From an uncultured Chloroflexia bacterium (GTDB lineage Bacteria; Chloroflexota; Limnocylindria; Limnocylindrales; CSP1-4), in assembly GCA_963726055.1 (NCBI GenBank), contig CAVSAP010000001.1, forward strand, positions 35,167-99,166: a DNA stretch of 64,000 nt, written 5' to 3'. Position numbers and translations under genes: made by a program. This document shows positions 22,184-33,796 of the stretch, in pieces. How positions within the stretch are numbered: the stretch's first letter is position 1; every line of letters begins with the position of its first letter. Under the pieces are notes generated by a model that did not search any database, was not told the origin of the DNA, and saw only the letters and a list, made by a program, of their open reading frames with translations.

Positions 22184-24950
22184 ATGCGCTGGCTGGGGCC
22201 GTCACTGCGCCACCTGAGGACCGAGCGAGGACCCGCCATCGGCCTGGCATTGGTCGTCCTCATGACGGCCCTCGCGGCCGGGCTGGCCCCGCGACTCCTC
22301 GATCGAATCTCGGACCAGTCTGTTCGCAGCGCAGTCGAGTCCGCAACGGACGCCGAGGCGAACGTCCAGCTGATCGAGGACGGTCGCATTCGATCTGGCG
22401 CCGAGGAGCCACTCGCGGTCGTCGATGCCGAGGGCGTTGAGCGCGAGGAACGGATGGCCGACGGCATTCGATCGCTCATCGCGGACCGGACCGCGGTCGC
22501 CGACAGCCCGCGCTGGTCGATCGTCACCCCGACGCGGACGGCGAGCACGGTTCGTTTCAGGTTCCAGCCTGGCGCGGAGGAACGCATCCGTCTCGTCGAG
22601 GGCCGCCTGCCGGGGGCGGAACCACGAACCGTGACGCTCACGGCGCCGGCCGAGCCCGAGCCACGGGAGGTCGTGGCCTACGAGGGCATCCTGTCGGTCG
22701 AGGCGCTGGAGGCACTCAACGTCTCGGTCGGCGACACGCTGCTCCTCGGTCCCGACCGGGGCGATCAGCTGTTCGCCGGTGCAGACGTCGATGTGCGTCT
22801 CGGCCTCGAGATCGTGGGCAGTTTCGAGCCGGCCGAGCCTGACGATCGGTTCTGGTTCGCCGACACGGGCCTCTGGCAGCCCGGACTCAGGGCCCTTTCG
22901 GACGACGTCCAGTTCGTGGACGTGACGGCGGCGATGGCGATCGACCTGTACGGCAACCTTCTCATCGAGAGCAACGCCGCGGGCTGGTCGCTCAGGTACA
23001 CCTGGCGATATGCAATCGACCCAGGGCGCATCGAGGCGGAGGCAACCGACACCCTGATCGCGGACTTCCGCCGCCTCGAGAGCACATTCCGGCCACAGAC
23101 CAACTTCTTTCGGGCGTCGAGCGGGACGATCGTCCGAACATCCCTCCTCCGGATCCTTGAAACCCAGCAGCAGCGATGGGTCGCAGCGAGCGGCGTCCTC
23201 GACGTCGCTGCGATCGGCGCCGCCGTCGTCGCGGCGATCGCTCTCGGACGCATGGCTGCACTCCTCGCCTATCGACGGCGAAGCATCCTGGCGGTCACGC
23301 GGAGCCGTGGTGCGTCGATCAGTCAGATCGTCGGCGGCGGCGTGGTCGAGGGCCTGCTCATCGTCGGCCTGCCCGTGGCGGTGGCCCTCGGCGCGGCCCT
23401 GGCCATCCTGCCAACGGGCGAGGCCGGACCGAGCGTCATCGCGGTTGCCATCGTCGGGACAGCGGCCCTCGCCCTGCTCGTCGGATCGATCGTCGCGACA
23501 GGTGTCCGGGCCGCTCCGTCCGGCGGGGCGAGAAGTCAGAGTAGCGGCGAGTCCTGGGCCGCGGAGGCTGGCTTCCGAGGCGCTTGTCGTCGGCCTTGCC
23601 GTGGTTGGCGCGTTGCTCCTGCGCGAACGCGGAATCAGCGGCGGGAGCAGCGCCGGCCAGCTTGGCTCGACCGATCCTTTCGTGGCCGCCGTGCCCGCGC
23701 TGGCGGGCCTCGCCGCCGGCCTGATCGCGATCCGCCTCCTGCCCCTGCCGACGTCCCTGTTCGGATACCTGGCGGCGCAGCGACGTGACCTCGTACCTGT
23801 CCTCGCGGCCCGCCGCGCCCTACGCGACCGGGACACAGGCGCCGTACTGGTCGTCCTACTCGCCGCCGCAACCGTCGGCGCGTTTTCTCTCGCCACCGTC
23901 GCCCACCTGAACCTCGCGGCCGAAGCCGTGAGCTGGCACGAGGTCGGAGCTCCGTACCGATTGCGGGCGGGCGTGACGACCCTGCCGTCGGACCTTGACC
24001 CGGCGACCGTGCCGGGCGTGACGGCGGCCGCGGCAGCGACCGAGACGCAGGCCACGACCTCCGCGAGCGCGACGCGGTTCGACATCCTGGCGATCGATGT
24101 TCGCGCCTACGCGGCGGTCGTCGGCGGTACGCCGGGCGACGTCGAGTTCCCGATCGAGATGTCGCGAGAGTCTCAATCCCCGTATCCCGCGATTGTCTCG
24201 ACTGCCCTGGCGGCGGAACGCGACGGCGCCGACCTCGGCGAGACGTTCCGTCTCACGATCGAGGGCCGAACGGCCGAGTTCCGGGCAGTCGAGGTCCGCG
24301 ACTCGTTCCCGACGATGCCGGCGGGCGGGCGGTTCGTGGTCGTCTCCCGCGAGCACGTCCGGGCGAGCGATCCGGACGCCTTCCTGCCAACAACGTCGCT
24401 GCTCCTGGCGGCCGACGACGGTGCGGCCGGCGACCTTCGAGCGGCGCTCCTGCCGGCGGCCCCGGCATCGAGCCTGACCAGTCAAGCCGAGCAAGCCGCG
24501 AGTCTTCGGGAGTCGCCGATCGTTACTGCCGTCAGCGCGGGCGCGACCGCCGCCGCGCTCGCGGCCGCGGCCTACGCCGCCCTCGCCGTCGCCGTGACAC
24601 TCGCCCTGTCGGGGGCTGCGAGGACGGTGGAGACGGCCCATCTCCGGACCCTCGGGGTGGGTCGGCGCCAGACGATCGGCCTGCTGGTCGTGGAGCACGG
24701 CCCGACAACCCTCTTCGCGTTCATCGTGGGGACGGCCCTGGGTTTCGCGATCTTCCAGCTGCTGGGCGCGCAGATCGGTGTCGGGGAAGTGGTCGGCTCG
24801 CCGCTCCTGCTGCCCCTGGCGATCGGCCCGGCTCACGTCATCGCCCTTCTTGCAGCGGTCCTGGCCATCGTTGCGATCGGAATCGCCCTGGCCGCCACGA
24901 TCCAGGCGCGTATGACAGCATCGACGGCTACACGAAGAGGCATCGAATGA
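22184..24950 (+). CDS. FtsX/MacB-like ABC transporter permease (frameshift near 23520-23550)
   Basis: N-half in ORF 22184-23788 ('AVTRSRGASISQI'), C-half in ORF 23157-24950 ('HLRTLGVGRRQ'); the two frames join near 23540. Confidence 0.8.
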
Positions 24951-25942
24951 CCCACGATCCGACGGCGCGCTCACTCGCCGAGGACGCACCCGAGATCATC
25001 GACCTGCCTGCCAGGCCGGCCGTCAGGGCTCCGGGCCGGCCGCCGGCCCGGCCTCGGTACGGCGAGACAGCGCGGATCGTGTGCGACAACCTCGTCCGTA
25101 TCTACAAGGTCGCCGAGCTGGAGGTCGTCGCCCTCCAGGGACTGGACCTGCTGGTTGATCCGGGCGAGATGATCGCCATCGTCGGTGCTTCCGGGAGCGG
25201 CAAGTCGACGCTCCTCAACATCCTGGCCGGGATGGATGAGCCGTCGGCTGGGCGCGCGGTCGTCGCCGGCCATGACCTCGGCTCCATGGGCCGCCGCGAG
25301 CGGACCAGCTACAGGCGCAAGGTGGTCGGCTTCATCTGGCAGCAGACGGCTCGCAATCTGCTGCCCTACCTGAGCGCAGTCGAGAATGTCGAGCTGCCGA
25401 TGGTTCTCGATGGGCGTCCCGAGCGTCGGCGGCGGGCGATGGAGCTGCTCGATCGGGTAGGGCTCCGGGACCGGGCGGACCACCGGCCGGACCGGCTGTC
25501 GGGAGGCGAGCAGCAGCGCGTGGCCGTCGCCCTTGCCCTGGCCAACGATCCGCCCGTCATCCTCGCCGACGAGCCGACCGGCGAGCTCGACAGCACGACA
25601 TCCGTCGAGATCCTCGGCCTCCTCCGGCAGGCCAATGCCGACCTCGGGACGACGGTCGTGATCGTGACCCACGACCCGCTCGTCTCGGTCCATGTCAACC
25701 GCACCGTGGCCATCAGGGACGGCCGGACCAGCACCGAGACGTTCCACCGGACCGAACTCGGCGAGGAGGGCGACCACACGGTCATCGCCGAGGAGTTCGC
25801 CGTCCTCGATCGGGCAGGGCGTCTGCAGCTGCCGCGCTCGCACATCGAGTCGCTCGAGCTCAGCAATCGGGTCCGGCTCCGACTCGAGGAGGATCACGTC
25901 GGCGTCTGGCCGGACGAGCCGGAACGGAACGAGCGGCGATGA
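24947..25942 (+). CDS. ABC ATP-binding protein (LolD/FtsE-like) with C-terminal extension
   Basis: GASGSGKST, LSGGEQQR, ILADEPTGELD, VTHD; C-terminal 'LDRAGRLQLP' AbrB-like extension. Confidence 0.92.
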   Translation: MTHDPTARSLAEDAPEIIDLPARPAVRAPGRPPARPRYGETARIVCDNLVRIYKVAELEVVALQGLDLLVDPGEMIAIVGASGSGKSTLLNILAGMDEPSAGRAVVAGHDLGSMGRRERTSYRRKVVGFIWQQTARNLLPYLSAVENVELPMVLDGRPERRRRAMELLDRVGLRDRADHRPDRLSGGEQQRVAVALALANDPPVILADEPTGELDSTTSVEILGLLRQANADLGTTVVIVTHDPLVSVHVNRTVAIRDGRTSTETFHRTELGEEGDHTVIAEEFAVLDRAGRLQLPRSHIESLELSNRVRLRLEEDHVGVWPDEPERNERR

Positions 25943-26700
25943 CGCTATCGTCCGATCCCGGCCAGCGGATCGTCGAGGGAACCGGGCTCGTTCGCGACTA
26001 CCCGTCGGGCGACAGTGTCGTCCATGCCCTCCGGGGAGTCGACCTTGCCGTGGGACGCGGGCAGCTCGTCTGCGTCCGGGGCCGTTCCGGCAGCGGCAAG
26101 ACCACGCTTCTCAATCTGCTCGGTGGTCTCGACCGGCCGACGGCCGGTCGGGTCGTGCTCGACGGTCAGGACCTGACCGCGATGGGTGAGCGCGAGCTCG
26201 TGGAGGTCCGGCGGCGGAGCGTCGGGTACATCTTCCAGGCGTTTGGCCTGTTGCCCATCCTGAGCGCGGCCGAGAACGTCGAAGTCCCGCTCCGGCTCGT
26301 GCGAGCCGATTCCCGCGAGCGCGAGGACCGCGTCCAGGATCTGCTCGAGCTGGTCGGTCTCGGCGAGCGCGCCGGCCATCGACCGCACGAGCTCTCAGGT
26401 GGCGAGCAGCAGCGTGTCGCCATCGCCCGCGCCCTCGCGAATCGTCCGCGCCTCGTGCTGGCCGACGAGCCAACCGGCCAGCTCGATTCCGAGACCGGCC
26501 ATCGGATCATGCTGCTGCTTCGCTCGATCGTCCGGGCGGAGGGCATCACCGCGGTGGTCGCGACCCACGATCCGCTGATGCTCGATGCCGCGGATCGGGT
26601 CGTCGAGCTTCATGACGGCCGCCTGGTTGAGCCCCTCGCCGATGCCGAAGGGGCCACTCCGACCGGTACCAATTCGCGCGGGGTGGCTGGCCTGCGCTGA
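25939..26700 (+). CDS. ABC ATP-binding protein (LolD/FtsE-like)
   Basis: GRSGSGKTT, LSGGEQQR, LADEPTGQLD, ATHD. Confidence 0.93.
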   Translation: MTLSSDPGQRIVEGTGLVRDYPSGDSVVHALRGVDLAVGRGQLVCVRGRSGSGKTTLLNLLGGLDRPTAGRVVLDGQDLTAMGERELVEVRRRSVGYIFQAFGLLPILSAAENVEVPLRLVRADSREREDRVQDLLELVGLGERAGHRPHELSGGEQQRVAIARALANRPRLVLADEPTGQLDSETGHRIMLLLRSIVRAEGITAVVATHDPLMLDAADRVVELHDGRLVEPLADAEGATPTGTNSRGVAGLR

Positions 26701-26712
26701 TAGACTCGGACC
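26698..26712 (+). promoter_or_regulatory. extended -10 leaderless promoter TGaTAGACT-N6-GTG for ftsZ
   Basis: TAGACT at 26701-26706, 6-nt spacer, GTG at 26713, no SD sequence; same geometry as six other genes in the window. Confidence 0.6.
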
Positions 26713-28055
26713 GTGGACGCAGGGGCCCAAACGCTCGTCCTTCTCGTCGTCGGCCTCGTGGCGATCGTGCTCGTCGCCAGGCTGCTGATCGCTGTCCCGG
26801 GCTGGATCCGACGGACCCGCCGGCCGGAGACGAGATCCATCCGCGTCATCGGTGTCGGTGGCGCCGGCAGCAACGCGGTCGACCGGATGATCGACGAACA
26901 GGTCTCGAACGTCGACTTTGTCGCCTGCAATACGGACGCCCAGGCCCTCAGGCGCTCGCTTGCCCCGACGAAGATCCGGATCGGTGACGCGATCACCGGG
27001 GGCCTCGGGTCCGGAGGCGACCCGGACGTCGGGCGCAGGTCGGCGGAAGATGGCGCCGGCATCATTGCCGCCGCGGTACGGGGCGCGGACCTCCTGTTCG
27101 TCACGGCCGGCCTCGGCGGAGGAACGGGCTCCGGGGCCGCGCCGATCATCGCCGCGAAGGCCAAGGCGCAGGGCGCTCTCACGATCGGCGTGGTCACGAA
27201 GCCGTTCGCGTTCGAGGGGACCAAGCGCCAGCGGATCGCGGAGGATGCCGCGGAGGAATTGCGCACCCAGGTCGACGCCCTGATCACGATTCCCAACGAC
27301 CGAATGAGCGACGTCGTCAAGGAAGACGCATCAATGGTCGACGCCTTCCGCACGGTCGATGGCGTCCTCGTCCAGGCCGTGCAGGGGATCATCGATCTGC
27401 TCAGCGCACCCGGGCTCATCAATGTCGACTTCGCCGACATCCGGGCGTTGATGCAGGATGCGGGCCCGGCGCTCATCGGGCTTGGGCGTGGCAGCGGCGA
27501 GAACCGCGCGTCCGATGCCGCGCGCCAGGCGATCTCCAGCCCGCTCCTCGAGGCGACCATCCAGGGCGCCAACAACCTGCTCTTCAACATCGCCGGTCCT
27601 GCAGATCTCCAGCTTCGCGAAGTTCGCCTCGCGGCAGATGAGATCCGTGCCGTTGCCGATCCGAATGCCAACGTCATCTTTGGCGCGAGCTTCAGTGAAC
27701 CAATCGGCGAGGACGTCCTCGTGACCCTCATCGCCACCGGGATGAACGGGCACAAGGCAGCGAAGGTCGCCGCTCCCGAGGCCACGCCCGAAGCCAGTCC
27801 CGAGCCGGCCCTCGAAGACAGCGTTGCCACGGTCGCCGAGTCGAGGCGGCGAACGAGGCGGCCCGCCGCCGCCGGTCTCGAGGCGCCGTCAGGCGCGACG
27901 GAACCGGCAACCGCCACCGCGGAACCCGCCGCCGCCCGGAACCGGCCGCCACCGCGGAACCCGCTGTTCCTGCGGTGCCCGCACCGTCGTTCGACGAGGA
28001 GAACTACGAAGTCCCGAGCTTCCTGCGGAGGCGATCGCCGCCGGGCAGCCGCTGA
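26713..28055 (+). CDS. ftsZ: FtsZ paralog with N-terminal transmembrane helix (one frameshift near 27937 in the linker)
   Basis: VIGVGGAGSNAV, NTDAQAL, GLGSGGDP, GGGTGSGAAP, PFAFEG, T7 loop INVDFADI. Conserved C-terminal peptide FDEENYEVPSFLRRR lies in the shifted frame ending at TGA 28053-28055. Confidence 0.9.
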
Positions 28056-28119: not shown

Positions 28120-28662
28120 ATGCTGGTGGGACGGATGTGGACGAGGGGACTCCTCGCCGGCCTGCTGGCGGGCGTCCTCTTCGGCTGCGACATGGGCCCG
28201 CCCAAGATTCCCATCCCGCCAGGGAGCCAGGTCGTTCATGTCGTGATCACCGAGTCAGCGGTGCGCCTGATCCCAGGGACGGTGCGCGCCGGGGACGTCT
28301 ACCTGGTGCTCGACGCGCCCCTGGGCGGCTCGTTCCAGTTCGTCCAGCGGAAACGCGCCGCCGACGAGGCGGAAGGTCCCTTGAGCGACGATGACCTCGA
28401 GCGGCTCGCGCACGGCGATACGGAAGGAACGAGCATCGGGGGCCTGGATTCCGGTGGATGCGCCCCGGACCAGGATGCCGCGAGTCGCGGGATGATGGGC
28501 CCGTGCGGGAACGTCATGAAGGCGACGGTGACCGCTGGGAAATACGCGATCCTCGGACCGGGCTGGACCGAGCAGGAGACGGAGCCGAGCGTTGATCCGA
28601 CCGCCGACCCCGCCGGGTTCGTCCCGCCCCCGTTCATGGGCGTCCTCGAGGTCCTGCCGTGA
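28120..28662 (+). CDS. hypothetical lipoprotein
   Basis: RBS GGGGAGG; signal 'WTRGLLAGLLAGVLFGC'; beta-rich body. The ORF track fuses it to ftsZ only because of the frameshift. Confidence 0.7.
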   Translation: MLVGRMWTRGLLAGLLAGVLFGCDMGPPKIPIPPGSQVVHVVITESAVRLIPGTVRAGDVYLVLDAPLGGSFQFVQRKRAADEAEGPLSDDDLERLAHGDTEGTSIGGLDSGGCAPDQDAASRGMMGPCGNVMKATVTAGKYAILGPGWTEQETEPSVDPTADPAGFVPPPFMGVLEVLP

Positions 28663-28683: not shown

Positions 28684-29745
28684 TCAGGACGATTCGGTCG
28701 GTTTCTCGGCGACGAGGATCGTGAAACGGCTGAAGGTTGTCTCATCGGCCACCCGCAGCCCTGCCCGGGCGCACCGGGCTCGCAGTTCCGCGGCCGCGTC
28801 AATCACATTGCCCCACGTCAGCTCGTACCACTGGGCGACGGCCGTGAACCGGGTTGGCATGTTGCGGAGGGCCTGGTCCGAGTCCGGGTAGACCTCGTCG
28901 AAGACGACGAGCGAGCCACCCGGTGCGAGCGCCCGAGCCGCCGAGGCCAGGACCTCGTCCTTCATCTCGGGCAGGATCTCGTGGACGACGAGGAACATCG
29001 TGATGACGTCGTAGCGGGCCTCGCCGGTCAGGCCCTCCGGGCCGAGCAGGTATGCGCCGCAGCGGTCGGCCAGGCCCTGCCGGGCGATCAGCTCCCGTGC
29101 AAGCTCGACGGAGCGCGGCTCGATGTCCGCCCCGTCGACCCGGCTGCTCGGGAACCGCTCAGCCAGCTGGACGACCGCCCAGCCGGCCCCGCACCCGAGG
29201 TCGAGCACCCTCGCTCCGGCGGCCAGCCGGGCGCCGAGCGTCGGCAGGCGTGGCAGGACGAGGTCGACGAAGATTCTGGGTAGCGAGCTCAGGCTGGTGC
29301 CGATCTCCTCGATGAACGCGTCGCTATGGTCCTGGTACGGCACGACGCGACCGGTCCGGAGGCGGTCGGCCATGTCGGGGTAGTCCTCGCCGCCGAGCAT
29401 CAGGTGGACCCGCGCCGCTCGGCCAAGGTAGAACGCCGAGTCCGGGTTGCCCAGGATGGCGTCCATGTGGGGCGCCATGCGCCAGCCGTCCCCGTCGCGC
29501 TGGATCAGCGAGAACGCGAACGCGGTCCGGCACAGCGCGTCCGTGTAGTGCGGGTCCGTCCCCAGCTCGGCAGCGAGGGTCGCCGAGTCGATGCCCGGAC
29601 GGGCAGTGATCCGGTCCCAGGCCCCGACCTCGCGGGCCACCTCGATCAGGTTCGTCAGGTGGTAGCCCGCGATGAGGTCGTAGAGGCGGGAGACCTGGTC
29701 GGCGAGGGATGGCGCAGCAGGGTCAGCGGTCGTTGGAGTCGTCAT
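28684..29745 (-). CDS. class I SAM-dependent methyltransferase with N-terminal winged-helix domain
   Basis: Motif I 'RVLDLGCGAGW', 'GADIE', 'RALAPGGSLVVFD'; leaderless TAGGAT-N6-ATG. Confidence 0.9.
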   Translation of the reverse strand: MTTPTTADPAAPSLADQVSRLYDLIAGYHLTNLIEVAREVGAWDRITARPGIDSATLAAELGTDPHYTDALCRTAFAFSLIQRDGDGWRMAPHMDAILGNPDSAFYLGRAARVHLMLGGEDYPDMADRLRTGRVVPYQDHSDAFIEEIGTSLSSLPRIFVDLVLPRLPTLGARLAAGARVLDLGCGAGWAVVQLAERFPSSRVDGADIEPRSVELARELIARQGLADRCGAYLLGPEGLTGEARYDVITMFLVVHEILPEMKDEVLASAARALAPGGSLVVFDEVYPDSDQALRNMPTRFTAVAQWYELTWGNVIDAAAELRARCARAGLRVADETTFSRFTILVAEKPTESS

Positions 29746-32137: not shown

Positions 32138-33796
32138 GTGAATGCACGTGACGAATCTCGGACTGTCTCGGCGCTTGCCATCAGCTACTGGGAGGACGTC
32201 CTTCGGCTCAATCCGATCTGGGCCACGCAGGTTGGCGATCGACGCTTCGACGATCAGTTGCCGGACCTTGATCCTGAGGCGAGCGACGGGGCGCTGGCGA
32301 CCTACCGAGGGGCGGCCAGCGCGGCCGCCGCGATTGACCGGACCACGTTGACCCCGGTCGATCGCACCACCCTTGACGTGATCGAGTCGCACTCCACGCA
32401 GCAGGTCGAGCGGCTGGAGCTCGGGTACCACCTCCTGGAAGCCGTGGACCACATGTGGGGGCCGGGGACGCTGCTGGCCCTCCTGCCCCAAGTCCAGGTC
32501 GTCGAAACCGCCGAACAGGCGACCACGTACCGTCGTCGTCTGGCCGATGTGCCCCGCTATCTCGCAGGTGCGGCAAGCCTGATGCTCGAGGGTCACGCCC
32601 GCGGCATCACCGCGCCGCGGATCGTCGTCGATCGCACGATCTCGCAAGTCGACCGACTCCTCCAGCAGTCGCCCGCCGAGTCCCAGGCCGTACTGGTCAC
32701 GCCAGAACCAGAACGCGAGGCGACCGCCGAGGTCATCAGGACACGGGTCATGCCGGCCTACGACCTGTACCGTCAGGCCCTCCAACGCTATCGGGAGCAG
32801 GCCCGAGACACGATCGGGTTGTCGGCCCTGCCCAACGGGGAAGCGCTGTACGCGAGTCGGGCCAGGGCATGGACGTCGCTCGACCTCGCACCGGCGGAGG
32901 TGCACGAACTCGGTCGCACCACGCTCGAGTCGATTCGCCTCGAGCAGCAGGGAATCGCGGACAAGCTTGGACAACCATCGGTCGCCGAAGCGATCCAGGT
33001 CGCTCGTGAACGATCGCGAACGTCGTCGCGCGAGACGATCGTCCGCACCGCCAGGAATCAGGTCGAGCGCGCGTGGAACGCGTCGGAGAGCTGGTTCGGT
33101 CGGCGGCCGGCAACGAATTGCAAGGTCCAGGCAATCGACCGCTCGCGTGAAGCCGACGTGCTCGATCACTACATCGGTCCGTCCGAGGACGGCTCGCGTC
33201 CCGGTGTGTTCTTCGTCAGCACGCGACCCGGACGACCGCTCTACGGGCTGGCTTCCACGGTCTACCACGAGAGCACGCCGGGGCATCACTTCCAGATCGC
33301 CCTCGAGCAGGACGCGTCCGATCGGCCGATGATCCGGCGCTTCAGTGCAGATCTCGTCGGTGGTGCGTTCGCCGAGGGATGGGGCCTCTACGCGGAGCGG
33401 CTCGCCGACGAGATGGGGCTCTTCGAGGACGACGCAGAGCGGCTCGGCATGCTGGAGTTGCAGGCGCTGCGAGCCGCGCGATTGGTCATCGACACGGGAA
33501 TCCATGCCTTTGAGTGGTCGCGCGACCAATCAATCGCCGAGCTGGAGCGCGCGTGGGCCGACAGCCGCGCTGACGCGGAGACCGAAATCGATCGGTACAT
33601 CGCGCTTCCCGGCCAGGCGCTCGCCTACACGCTCGGCCAGATGGAAATCGTCCGATGGCGGCGCGAGGCGGCCGAGCGATCCGGCGACTCGTTCTCACTG
33701 TCGGGGTTCCACGACCGGCTTCTCGAGATCGGCTCGTTGCCGCTGCCCGCGATCGGACGTGAGCTTGCGATGGCCGAGGATGCCGGGCGTGCCTAG
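32138..33796 (+). CDS. DUF885 family protein (putative metallopeptidase)
   Basis: 'YHESTPGHHFQ', 'FAEGWGLYAE', 'RAARLVIDTGIH', 'EIDRYIALPGQALAY'. Confidence 0.9.
   Translation: MNARDESRTVSALAISYWEDVLRLNPIWATQVGDRRFDDQLPDLDPEASDGALATYRGAASAAAAIDRTTLTPVDRTTLDVIESHSTQQVERLELGYHLLEAVDHMWGPGTLLALLPQVQVVETAEQATTYRRRLADVPRYLAGAASLMLEGHARGITAPRIVVDRTISQVDRLLQQSPAESQAVLVTPEPEREATAEVIRTRVMPAYDLYRQALQRYREQARDTIGLSALPNGEALYASRARAWTSLDLAPAEVHELGRTTLESIRLEQQGIADKLGQPSVAEAIQVARERSRTSSRETIVRTARNQVERAWNASESWFGRRPATNCKVQAIDRSREADVLDHYIGPSEDGSRPGVFFVSTRPGRPLYGLASTVYHESTPGHHFQIALEQDASDRPMIRRFSADLVGGAFAEGWGLYAERLADEMGLFEDDAERLGMLELQALRAARLVIDTGIHAFEWSRDQSIAELERAWADSRADAETEIDRYIALPGQALAYTLGQMEIVRWRREAAERSGDSFSLSGFHDRLLEIGSLPLPAIGRELAMAEDAGRA

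Follow-up and report, generated by a model that had tools for sequence, protein, structure and literature searches.

A clade of uncultured soil Chloroflexota carries an accessory FtsZ with a predicted N-terminal transmembrane anchor

Introduction

Whether the force of constriction comes from FtsZ itself is an unresolved question, and central to it are the manner in which FtsZ is attached to the membrane and the filament face by which it is attached. To our knowledge, all characterised bona fide FtsZ proteins are soluble or bound to the membrane peripherally. Studies of N-terminal tethering have relied mainly on engineered constructs, in which the direction of membrane deformation is reversed. 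Here we describe a gene that begins at position 26713 of a 64,000-nucleotide stretch of contig CAVSAP010000001.1 from an uncultured Chloroflexia bacterium (this whole stretch is hereafter called the window) and that encodes an FtsZ with a predicted N-terminal transmembrane (TM) anchor. We refer to the gene as TM-ftsZ and to its product as TM-FtsZ.

Several natural FtsZ proteins are known to reach the membrane by themselves. OdinFtsZ1 is a self-anchoring FtsZ that binds the membrane by an N-terminal amphipathic helix (PMC12583498), the FtsZ of group 1E Mycoplasma is likewise self-anchoring through an amphipathic helix (bioRxiv 10.1101/2023.08.29.555414), and chloroplast FtsZ1 (AtFtsZ1) is a further natural FtsZ with such a helix; a sequence-only reading of the window made before this analysis, which had taken membrane-targeted FtsZ to be known mainly in engineered form, was therefore outdated on this point. 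TM-FtsZ resembles all three in that it would sit on the membrane directly, with no adaptor. In OdinFtsZ1 and in ten Mycoplasma species the tether is on the N-terminal side, as it is here, and Odinarchaeota also have a system of two FtsZ paralogues with differing modes of tethering. However, the helices of OdinFtsZ1, the Mycoplasma proteins and AtFtsZ1 are ~13 residues long, peripheral and reversible, whereas that of TM-FtsZ is ~22-25 residues long, uniformly hydrophobic and predicted to be inserted permanently. Group 1E Mycoplasma FtsZ also lacks the C-terminal peptide, which the TM-FtsZ clade keeps, and the lineages of these three kinds of FtsZ are unrelated to that clade.

In liposome experiments, shifting the tether to the N-terminal side of FtsZ switched the side of the membrane that bears the Z rings (Osawa and Erickson 2011, as summarised in PMC5797765), a reversal that is also discussed in bioRxiv 10.1101/2023.08.29.555414. 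In the former summary, the engineered FtsZ with a membrane-targeting sequence (mts-FtsZ) is tethered from the N-terminal side, opposite to the natural C-terminal tether, as in TM-FtsZ; but by the same summary mts-FtsZ is artificial, uses the amphipathic helix of MinD and has no C-terminal peptide, whereas TM-FtsZ is natural, has a predicted transmembrane helix and in its intact allele bears the peptide on a linker of ~100 residues. The topology that we predict for TM-FtsZ is that of ZipA, a bitopic protein of gamma-proteobacteria in which a short outside N-terminus is followed by one transmembrane helix, a basic cluster and then the cytoplasmic body by which FtsZ filaments are tethered. ZipA is not a member of the tubulin family, however, and it binds the C-terminal peptide of FtsZ via a separate domain that follows a long linker, whereas the anchor of TM-FtsZ is fused to the GTPase with almost no linker. 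Within the FtsZ superfamily, SSO1376, the FtsZl1 protein of Sulfolobus solfataricus, has N-terminal transmembrane helices (Makarova and Koonin 2010, PMC2875224); unlike TM-FtsZ, which we judge to be a bona fide FtsZ, SSO1376 is an archaeal, transposon-disrupted member of the highly divergent FtsZ-like 1 family. We found no other FtsZ-superfamily protein with N-terminal transmembrane helices in the searchable literature, nor any description there of a bona fide FtsZ with an integral transmembrane helix, absence from that literature not being proof; transmembrane segments go unmentioned in a 2023 survey of the FtsZ family (PMC9871819). Apparently, no integral transmembrane anchor has yet been described on a bona fide FtsZ.

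Results

The ORF (open reading frame) list, the sequence and the translation agree on the order of elements at the N-terminus: the GTG at 26713 (plus strand, as are all parts of the gene given below) is followed by (M)DAGAQTLVLLVVGLVAIVLVARLLIAVPGWIRRTRRPETRS and then by IRVIGVGGAG, the N-terminal segment leading straight into IRVIGVGGAGSNAV. Residues ~7-31 (TLVLLVVGLVAIVLVARLLIAVPGW; 26731-26805) make up a hydrophobic helix that ends in a conserved PGW, and residues 32-42 (IRRTRRPETRS; 26806-26838) a basic juxtamembrane cluster and short tether. In the near-identical intact allele of the gene, P0003, the top 19-residue Kyte-Doolittle window scores 3.13 and the Eisenberg hydrophobic moment is 0.14 at a mean hydrophobicity of 0.83, which makes the helix uniformly hydrophobic rather than amphipathic and of membrane-spanning length; no lysine or arginine lies on its N-terminal side and six lie on its C-terminal side. 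The segment shows the features of a bitopic N-out/C-in signal anchor, namely a single hydrophobic helix of about 20 residues or more, no positive n-region, positive charges C-terminal to the helix and no signal-peptidase site, whereas a moment of 0.14 sets the segment apart from the amphipathic membrane-targeting helices of the OdinFtsZ1 and Mycoplasma type. We consider it strongly supported that the first ~31 residues are a signal-anchor transmembrane helix, which by the positive-inside rule would insert N-out/C-in. The sequence-only reading had described just this arrangement of a hydrophobic helix, a basic RRTRR cluster and an FtsZ core, with the same predicted orientation, and our findings confirm it.

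The helix is a feature of the family and not of one sequence. Here and below, homologue statistics refer to the best 120 database homologues (62-99% identity) and residue conservation to an alignment, A1, of 73 members. The helix is present in 118 of the 120 homologues, with 19-residue Kyte-Doolittle means before the G-box of 1.8-3.3 (all but one above 2.2) and Eisenberg moments of only 0.05-0.25, and nearly all of them have no lysine or arginine before the helix (usually one aspartate or glutamate) and three to seven after it. The two exceptions are one canonical or chimeric FtsZ and one N-terminally truncated entry, so that the earlier concern that close homologues might lack the helix falls away; a chimeric join near 26800, also raised then, is contradicted by a 98.5%-identical assembly (L105) that is collinear with the window there. 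In A1, R23 in the helix and P38 and R41 in the tether are invariant, L20, P29, R36 and E39 are conserved in at least 90% of members, and the consensus reads ...LRxLxAVPGWxRRxRRPETRAIRVVGVGG. AlphaFold2, run on A1, predicts one helix over residues 3-35 (pLDDT 86-97), a short linker over residues 36-42, a confident FtsZ core and a tail that is disordered from about residue 355, the proline-, alanine- and glutamate-rich linker that follows the core having pLDDT below 50. Pairwise dN/dS between orthologues is 0.2-0.5 over residues 1-42, compared with 0.03-0.16 in the core and 0.18-0.67 in the tail, indicating that the N-terminal segment is translated and under purifying selection, which in the core is strong. 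The stretch between the helix and strand S1 is only ~7-11 residues long, and a tether this short would hold the N-terminal face of the GTPase domain against the bilayer.

The hydrophobic segment would not anchor the mature protein if translation started downstream of it or if it were a cleaved secretion signal. GTG codons do occur in frame at codons 16 and 19, and for a few database entries (P0077, P0114) the annotated start is an internal one. However, these two codons are the only other in-frame starts and each lies within the hydrophobic helix, so that initiation at either would still give a hydrophobic N-terminus; a check of in-frame codons found no ATG or TTG between GTG 26713 and the G-box, as the sequence-only reading had said for ATG, and thus no usable downstream start. 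GTG 26713 (26713-26715) is the first start codon after an in-frame stop, TAG, at 26701-26703. An extended -10 element, TGaTAGACT (26698-26706; hexamer TAGACT at 26701-26706), stands 6 nt before it, and when the upstream DNA of TM-type loci was aligned, TAGACT or a close variant (TACACT, TAGATT, TAGTCT, TAGGTT or TAGCGT) was found 6-7 nt 5' of the GTG or ATG at 22 of 22 loci, which span at least four unrelated genomic contexts. Because the -10 box is conserved at this distance at every locus, we regard as strongly supported, from the DNA sequence, that the start codon is fixed at GTG 26713 and that the mRNA is leaderless, with its 5' end predicted at or very near the GTG; this reinforces the proposal of a leaderless extended -10 made from the window alone. 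Cleavage as a signal peptide can be rejected, since there is no positive n-region and no AxA site, the hydrophobic stretch is ~22-25 residues long and a strong basic cluster follows it; an exported GTPase, moreover, could not work without cytoplasmic GTP. Together with the purifying selection on residues 1-42, these observations make it very improbable that the segment is anything but an anchor.

Leaderless genes appear to be common in the host genome, a large fraction of whose genes seem to be of this kind, because 195 of the 380 TAnnnT-N6-RTG sites genome-wide open ORFs of at least 150 codons with a high GC content at third codon positions (above 0.8). A second, distal element, G(G/T)AC(G/C/T)nWTT (here ggtaccaatt, 26664-26673), lies ~30 nt 5' of the -10, in the 3' end of the gene for an ATP-binding cassette (ABC) transporter ATPase, and is equally spaced from the -10 in most of the 22 loci. 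Its distance from the -10 is too great for a sigma-70 -35 box, and it may be a site at which a regulator binds. The promoter cassette of distal element and TAGACT -10 travels with the gene (window 26651-26715; loci L033-L050, L063-L065 and L098). A regulon search of the whole genome with a strict pattern for the distal motif plus the -10 returned only one other site, on contig C6, with its start codon at 83774.

Downstream of the tether, the protein is, judged by its sequence, a bona fide FtsZ. It scores 372.4-372.8 bits against TIGR00065, the FtsZ equivalog model of NCBIfam (cut-off 295.2), and contains an FtsZ/tubulin GTPase domain (PF00091, E 1.5e-44; residues 43-202; 26839-27318) and an FtsZ C-terminal domain (PF12327, FtsZ_C, E 1.4e-27; residues 251-344; 27463-27744). 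The T4 motif GGGTGSG (residues 135-141; 27115-27135) is invariant in the 73 members of A1, as are N237, D239, F240, A241 and D242 of the T7 synergy loop NVDFAD (residues 237-242; 27421-27438), and throughout the clade the residues of T1, T4 and T7 do not vary, nor does any nucleotide-binding or T7 catalytic residue. Foldseek aligns the core with FtsZ of B. subtilis, M. tuberculosis and S. aureus at TM-scores of 0.84-0.92 and 50-53% identity (0.89-0.92 and 51-53% for B. subtilis; PDB 2vam, 2vxy). A sequence search of the PDB matched query residues 32-365 only, and from residue 39 on in all but the weakest match, so that no solved structure found in this search covers residues 1-31. The equivalog score, and a tree (described below) in which the protein stands beside the canonical FtsZ of its own family, separate it from the FtsZ-like 1 family and from FtsZ-like 2; no vWA, kinase or OmpA-type genes occur among those of its neighbours that have a family match. 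With canonical FtsZ it shares the two-domain fold, the T1, T4 and T7 motifs, a disordered linker and, in the intact allele, a peptide of the form D/E-x-P-x-F-L-R-R, and it differs from canonical FtsZ in its 42-residue N-terminal extension with a transmembrane helix, its place outside the dcw (division and cell wall) cluster, its own leaderless promoter, its accessory status and its faster evolution. Consistent differences between the two cores come to five columns, all conservative, and gave no lead towards a polymer interface altered by clade-specific substitutions.

The core is followed by a disordered linker rich in proline, alanine and glutamate (27745-27995) and by the conserved C-terminal peptide EENYEVPSFLRR (27996-28031), which continues through RSPPGSR to a stop codon at 28053-28055 (whole segment 27996-28055). 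In A1, P435 and R439 of the peptide are invariant and F437 and L438 are conserved in at least 90% of members, and EVPSFLRR is in frame in P0003 and in nearly all of the main clade. A set of divergent members (L045-L050, L098) keeps the transmembrane helix, lacks the PGWxRRxRRPE motif and has mostly lost the peptide.

In the window itself the C-terminal end, ...SFDEENYEVPSFLRRRSPPGSR*, reads in frame +2 relative to the start. As sequenced, frame 0 from GTG 26713 stays open to 28662 and would give 649 amino acids (aa) fused to the next gene; the span of 26713-28055 that the sequence-only reading assigned to the ORF is therefore not what the sequence gives, and of the features which that reading described as retained the GTPase motifs and linker stand, whereas the peptide is present but out of frame. 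The switch falls at 27937/27938, a spot that had been flagged earlier, where one base is missing relative to P0003, whose DNA carries an extra T, and within an 18-nt tandem repeat (27911-27964; Tandem Repeats Finder); near the frameshift the window sequence is made to resemble the upstream repeat unit. P0003 is the best database match (99% identical, 447 aa, C-terminal peptide in frame), and its DNA is the 1.79-Mb ENA contig L105, which shares its gene order with the window and matches it at 98.5% identity over 13.3 kb. The two assemblies differ in these 13.3 kb by five single-base indels, of which the one in ftsZ and at least two others break genes that are intact in the counterpart: an indel at 23495 breaks the FtsX-type permease B (~22200-24950), the second permease gene of the ABC operon, in the window, an intact 921-aa gene in L105, and an indel at 32953 breaks, in L105, a DUF885 gene that the window has intact. 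At 28806, 29879 and 32953, single-base differences alter gene lengths in one or other assembly.

Because such sporadic gene-breaking indels, present in both assemblies, point to consensus errors, the ftsZ frameshift is probably an assembly artefact. It is correspondingly unlikely that the 1-nt deletion is real and that the window copy has truly decayed to a pseudogene, or has become a truncated or fused form whose 649-aa product lacks the C-terminal peptide. The frameshift is nevertheless what the window sequence contains, and a repeat that has come to resemble the unit upstream has the look of slippage or conversion more than of a simple homopolymer error. Against this stand the closeness of the intact allele, from which the core differs almost entirely by synonymous changes, the four other single-base indels, whose distribution over both assemblies is the pattern of assembly error, and the fact that the frameshift leaves the GTPase core and the anchor untouched.

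The genome holds a second ftsZ gene (C6:437903-439135), which encodes a 410-aa protein that begins MPLRSDSENFALIRVIGVGGGG and ends DDLEIPSFLRRK, and which lies in a cluster of the order murF-mraY-...-ftsW-...-murB-ddl-ftsQ-ftsA-(yjbQ-like)-ftsZ-yggS. The FtsA encoded there scores 421 bits against TIGR01174, and the cores of the two FtsZ proteins are 59% identical. Because this canonical ftsZ stands by ftsA in a dcw cluster, TM-FtsZ is an accessory paralogue of a canonical FtsA-FtsZ system, and its earlier designation as an FtsZ paralogue outside a dcw cluster is borne out. The gene between ftsA and ftsZ (G000:C6:436574-437056) is YjbQ/UPF0047-like. A search for SepF, an alternative binder of the C-terminal peptide, gave no PF04472 match in this 85%-complete genome.

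To place the anchor in evolution, we built a maximum-likelihood tree of 90 FtsZ cores that comprised TM-type sequences from genomes and metagenomes, canonical sequences of the same class and sequences from other Chloroflexota classes. In this tree the 42 TM-type sequences all lie to one side of a branch whose SH-aLRT support is 99. A single change of state is enough to account for the TM type (none of 500 label shuffles needed as few), and the TM branch joins the tree next to the canonical FtsZ from the family of the window, with the other classes farther out. The single change and this point of attachment indicate that the anchor was gained once, after duplication of canonical FtsZ within this Limnocylindria-like class. 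Branch lengths in the TM clade exceed those in the canonical clade several-fold.

The TM-type gene occurs in ~19 of 401 species genomes of the class (~5%), 12 of the 19 carriers belonging to one genus; each carrier also has a canonical copy, so that the TM type is never the sole FtsZ. Three genomes of the window's genus (G403, G404 and G412) carry TM-type genes elsewhere in the genome. One genome, G191, has two TM-type ftsZ genes of different subclades (C3:252839-253120 and C2:984452-984733; L034, L035) in addition to the canonical gene, making three FtsZ in all. In 356 genomes of other Chloroflexota classes, no match that extended over the helix was obtained. When the N-terminal 62 residues were compared with 1.84 billion representative proteins, only 14 clusters at 50% identity were recovered, as expected of a compact family, and a comparison of the N-terminal 76 residues with genome contigs, in which the patterns were too specific to the window, yielded one TM-type locus (L106), the rest being N-termini of canonical FtsZ. 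L106 comes from a Microflora Danica soil metagenome-assembled genome (MAG) labelled 'uncultured Chloroflexia bacterium'; one homologue bears the NCBI name Candidatus Limnocylindrales, and others are labelled as Chloroflexia or Chloroflexota MAGs. The carriers of the helix-bearing form of FtsZ are uncultured Chloroflexota of soil that make up a small clade. Two FtsZ matches were also obtained in many other families of the phylum. In another of its classes, a different, long-branch second FtsZ with an open frame of ~448-476 aa is found in family f22, genus g93 (L092, L094, L101); it has neither a transmembrane helix nor a C-terminal FLRR peptide and is accompanied by a canonical FtsZ.

Upstream of TM-ftsZ lie genes for two FtsX-domain permeases and two ABC ATPases, the last of which (25939-26700, plus strand) ends 12 nt before the GTG and overlaps the ftsZ promoter with its last ~22 codons. 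Downstream follow, in order, a lipoprotein-like ORF, a methyltransferase gene on the minus strand, and genes for a secreted protein, a Kelch protein and a DUF885 protein; it is this ABC transporter operon, the lipoprotein-like ORF and the methyltransferase gene that flank TM-ftsZ, in place of a dcw cluster. Two well-assembled genomes of the same genus (G092, G050) have the ABC operon with no ftsZ after it, and the tail of their ATPase is not conserved. That the last ~22 codons of the ATPase overlap the promoter and are not conserved in these orthologues suggests that promoter and gene arrived at the present site as a unit. The lipoprotein-like ORF (180 aa with an LFGC lipobox, MLVGRMWTRGLLAGLLAGVLFGC...; 28120-28662, plus strand) owes its fusion to ftsZ solely to the frameshift and does not belong to the system: in L105 it stands alone as a 178-aa gene, it has no Pfam or NCBIfam match and it is not conserved beside TM-ftsZ elsewhere.

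When the neighbours of 18 TM-ftsZ loci were clustered, at least four unrelated contexts and no conserved operon partner emerged; in genomes other than that of the window the gene is usually monocistronic, between divergent and convergent genes. A functional link of the FtsEX kind was considered and rejected, since the ABC and FtsX neighbours are specific to the lineage of the window's copy.

Discussion

We favour, with a probability of roughly 55%, a reading of these sequences in which TM-FtsZ co-assembles with canonical FtsZ or nucleates it, and so serves as a permanently tethered, separately regulated accessory subunit of the ring that is able to recruit FtsA. A stub of ~7 acidic or neutral residues would lie outside the cell, with the IRRTRR cluster and the complete GTPase in the cytoplasm, and TM-FtsZ would form its polymers with GTP right at the cytoplasmic membrane, on the inner face. 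Canonical FtsZ, which is 59% identical to it, would, to judge from similarity only, most likely join these polymers or be nucleated by them, and the long disordered linker and the peptide EVPSFLRR would presumably still recruit FtsA and other Z-ring partners. TM-FtsZ would in this way act as a built-in anchor of the division ring. The suggestion made from the window alone that the system might be independent of FtsA finds no support, since the genome encodes FtsA and the main clade keeps the peptide that FtsA binds.

Several points weigh against such a role in the division ring. The window copy may be a pseudogene, should the frameshift prove real. By analogy with mts-FtsZ as summarised in PMC5797765, a tether on the N-terminal side would sit on the face of the filament opposite to that of the normal C-terminal tether, which would disfavour simple incorporation into an inward-constricting ring and favour a separate filament. 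The gene is patchily distributed (~5% of species), its evolution is faster than that of the canonical copy and the C-terminal peptide has mostly gone from the divergent members L045-L050 and L098, all of which suggests that it is dispensable and may not encode a division protein. Among the 18 loci whose neighbours were clustered, furthermore, no conserved operon partner offers a clue to function.

The question of filament face leads to a more tentative possibility, namely that TM-FtsZ forms a separate, 'inside-out' membrane-remodelling filament outside the division ring, in which homopolymers held by the N-terminal face would either curve the membrane outward or occupy convex surfaces, and which could serve in budding, in the formation of vesicles or tubules, in cell-shape or pole functions or in an alternative, conditional mode of division. 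A tether of no more than ~7-11 residues fits such a filament, as does the reversed membrane side of FtsZ rings that carry an engineered N-terminal membrane-targeting sequence (summarised in PMC5797765; see also bioRxiv 10.1101/2023.08.29.555414). So, too, do the gene's own conserved promoter with its distinctive distal element, its monocistronic, accessory and patchy occurrence in variable contexts, the two TM-type copies of different subclades in some genomes (G191) and the loss of the FtsA-binding peptide from divergent members. However, the main clade, including the intact allele, keeps a canonical C-terminal peptide under selection, which speaks for interaction with Z-ring partners, the core is so nearly indistinguishable from that of canonical FtsZ that hetero-polymerisation would be hard to avoid, and no partner genes hint at a distinct machine.

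We think it improbable that TM-FtsZ is instead a membrane-bound regulator of division that caps or sequesters canonical FtsZ or FtsA and so delays or relocates Z-ring assembly under particular conditions. An accessory, separately promoted paralogue that evolves faster than the canonical copy, and whose retained peptide would compete for FtsA, is what such a regulator might look like, but the T7 catalytic and nucleotide-binding residues of TM-FtsZ are invariant, whereas inhibitory paralogues usually degrade one polymerisation face.

It is possible, if rather doubtful, that Limnocylindria-like bacteria run a two-FtsZ system in which TM-FtsZ, as an integral membrane protein, occurs naturally 'inside-out': its filaments would be tethered by the face that lies across from the one used by every characterised FtsZ, and would bend or sense membrane with a sign of curvature opposite to that of the FtsA-tethered canonical ring, or in which the long C-terminal tether and the anchor together clamp the filament by two faces. 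Either arrangement, if true, would provide a natural test of the curved-protofilament model of force generation and a one-protein membrane-deforming module for synthetic cells.

As an accessory ring subunit or otherwise, TM-FtsZ is a candidate minimal self-anchoring module for division or remodelling in liposome-based synthetic cells. Its TAGACT-N6-start promoter offers a clean example of a leaderless gene in an uncultured class of Chloroflexota. A natural, conserved and selected FtsZ with a predicted integral N-terminal anchor and almost no linker, in genomes that also have a canonical FtsA-FtsZ pair, is a ready natural experiment on whether FtsZ itself generates constriction force, and TM-FtsZ would represent a new way for FtsZ paralogues to divide labour.

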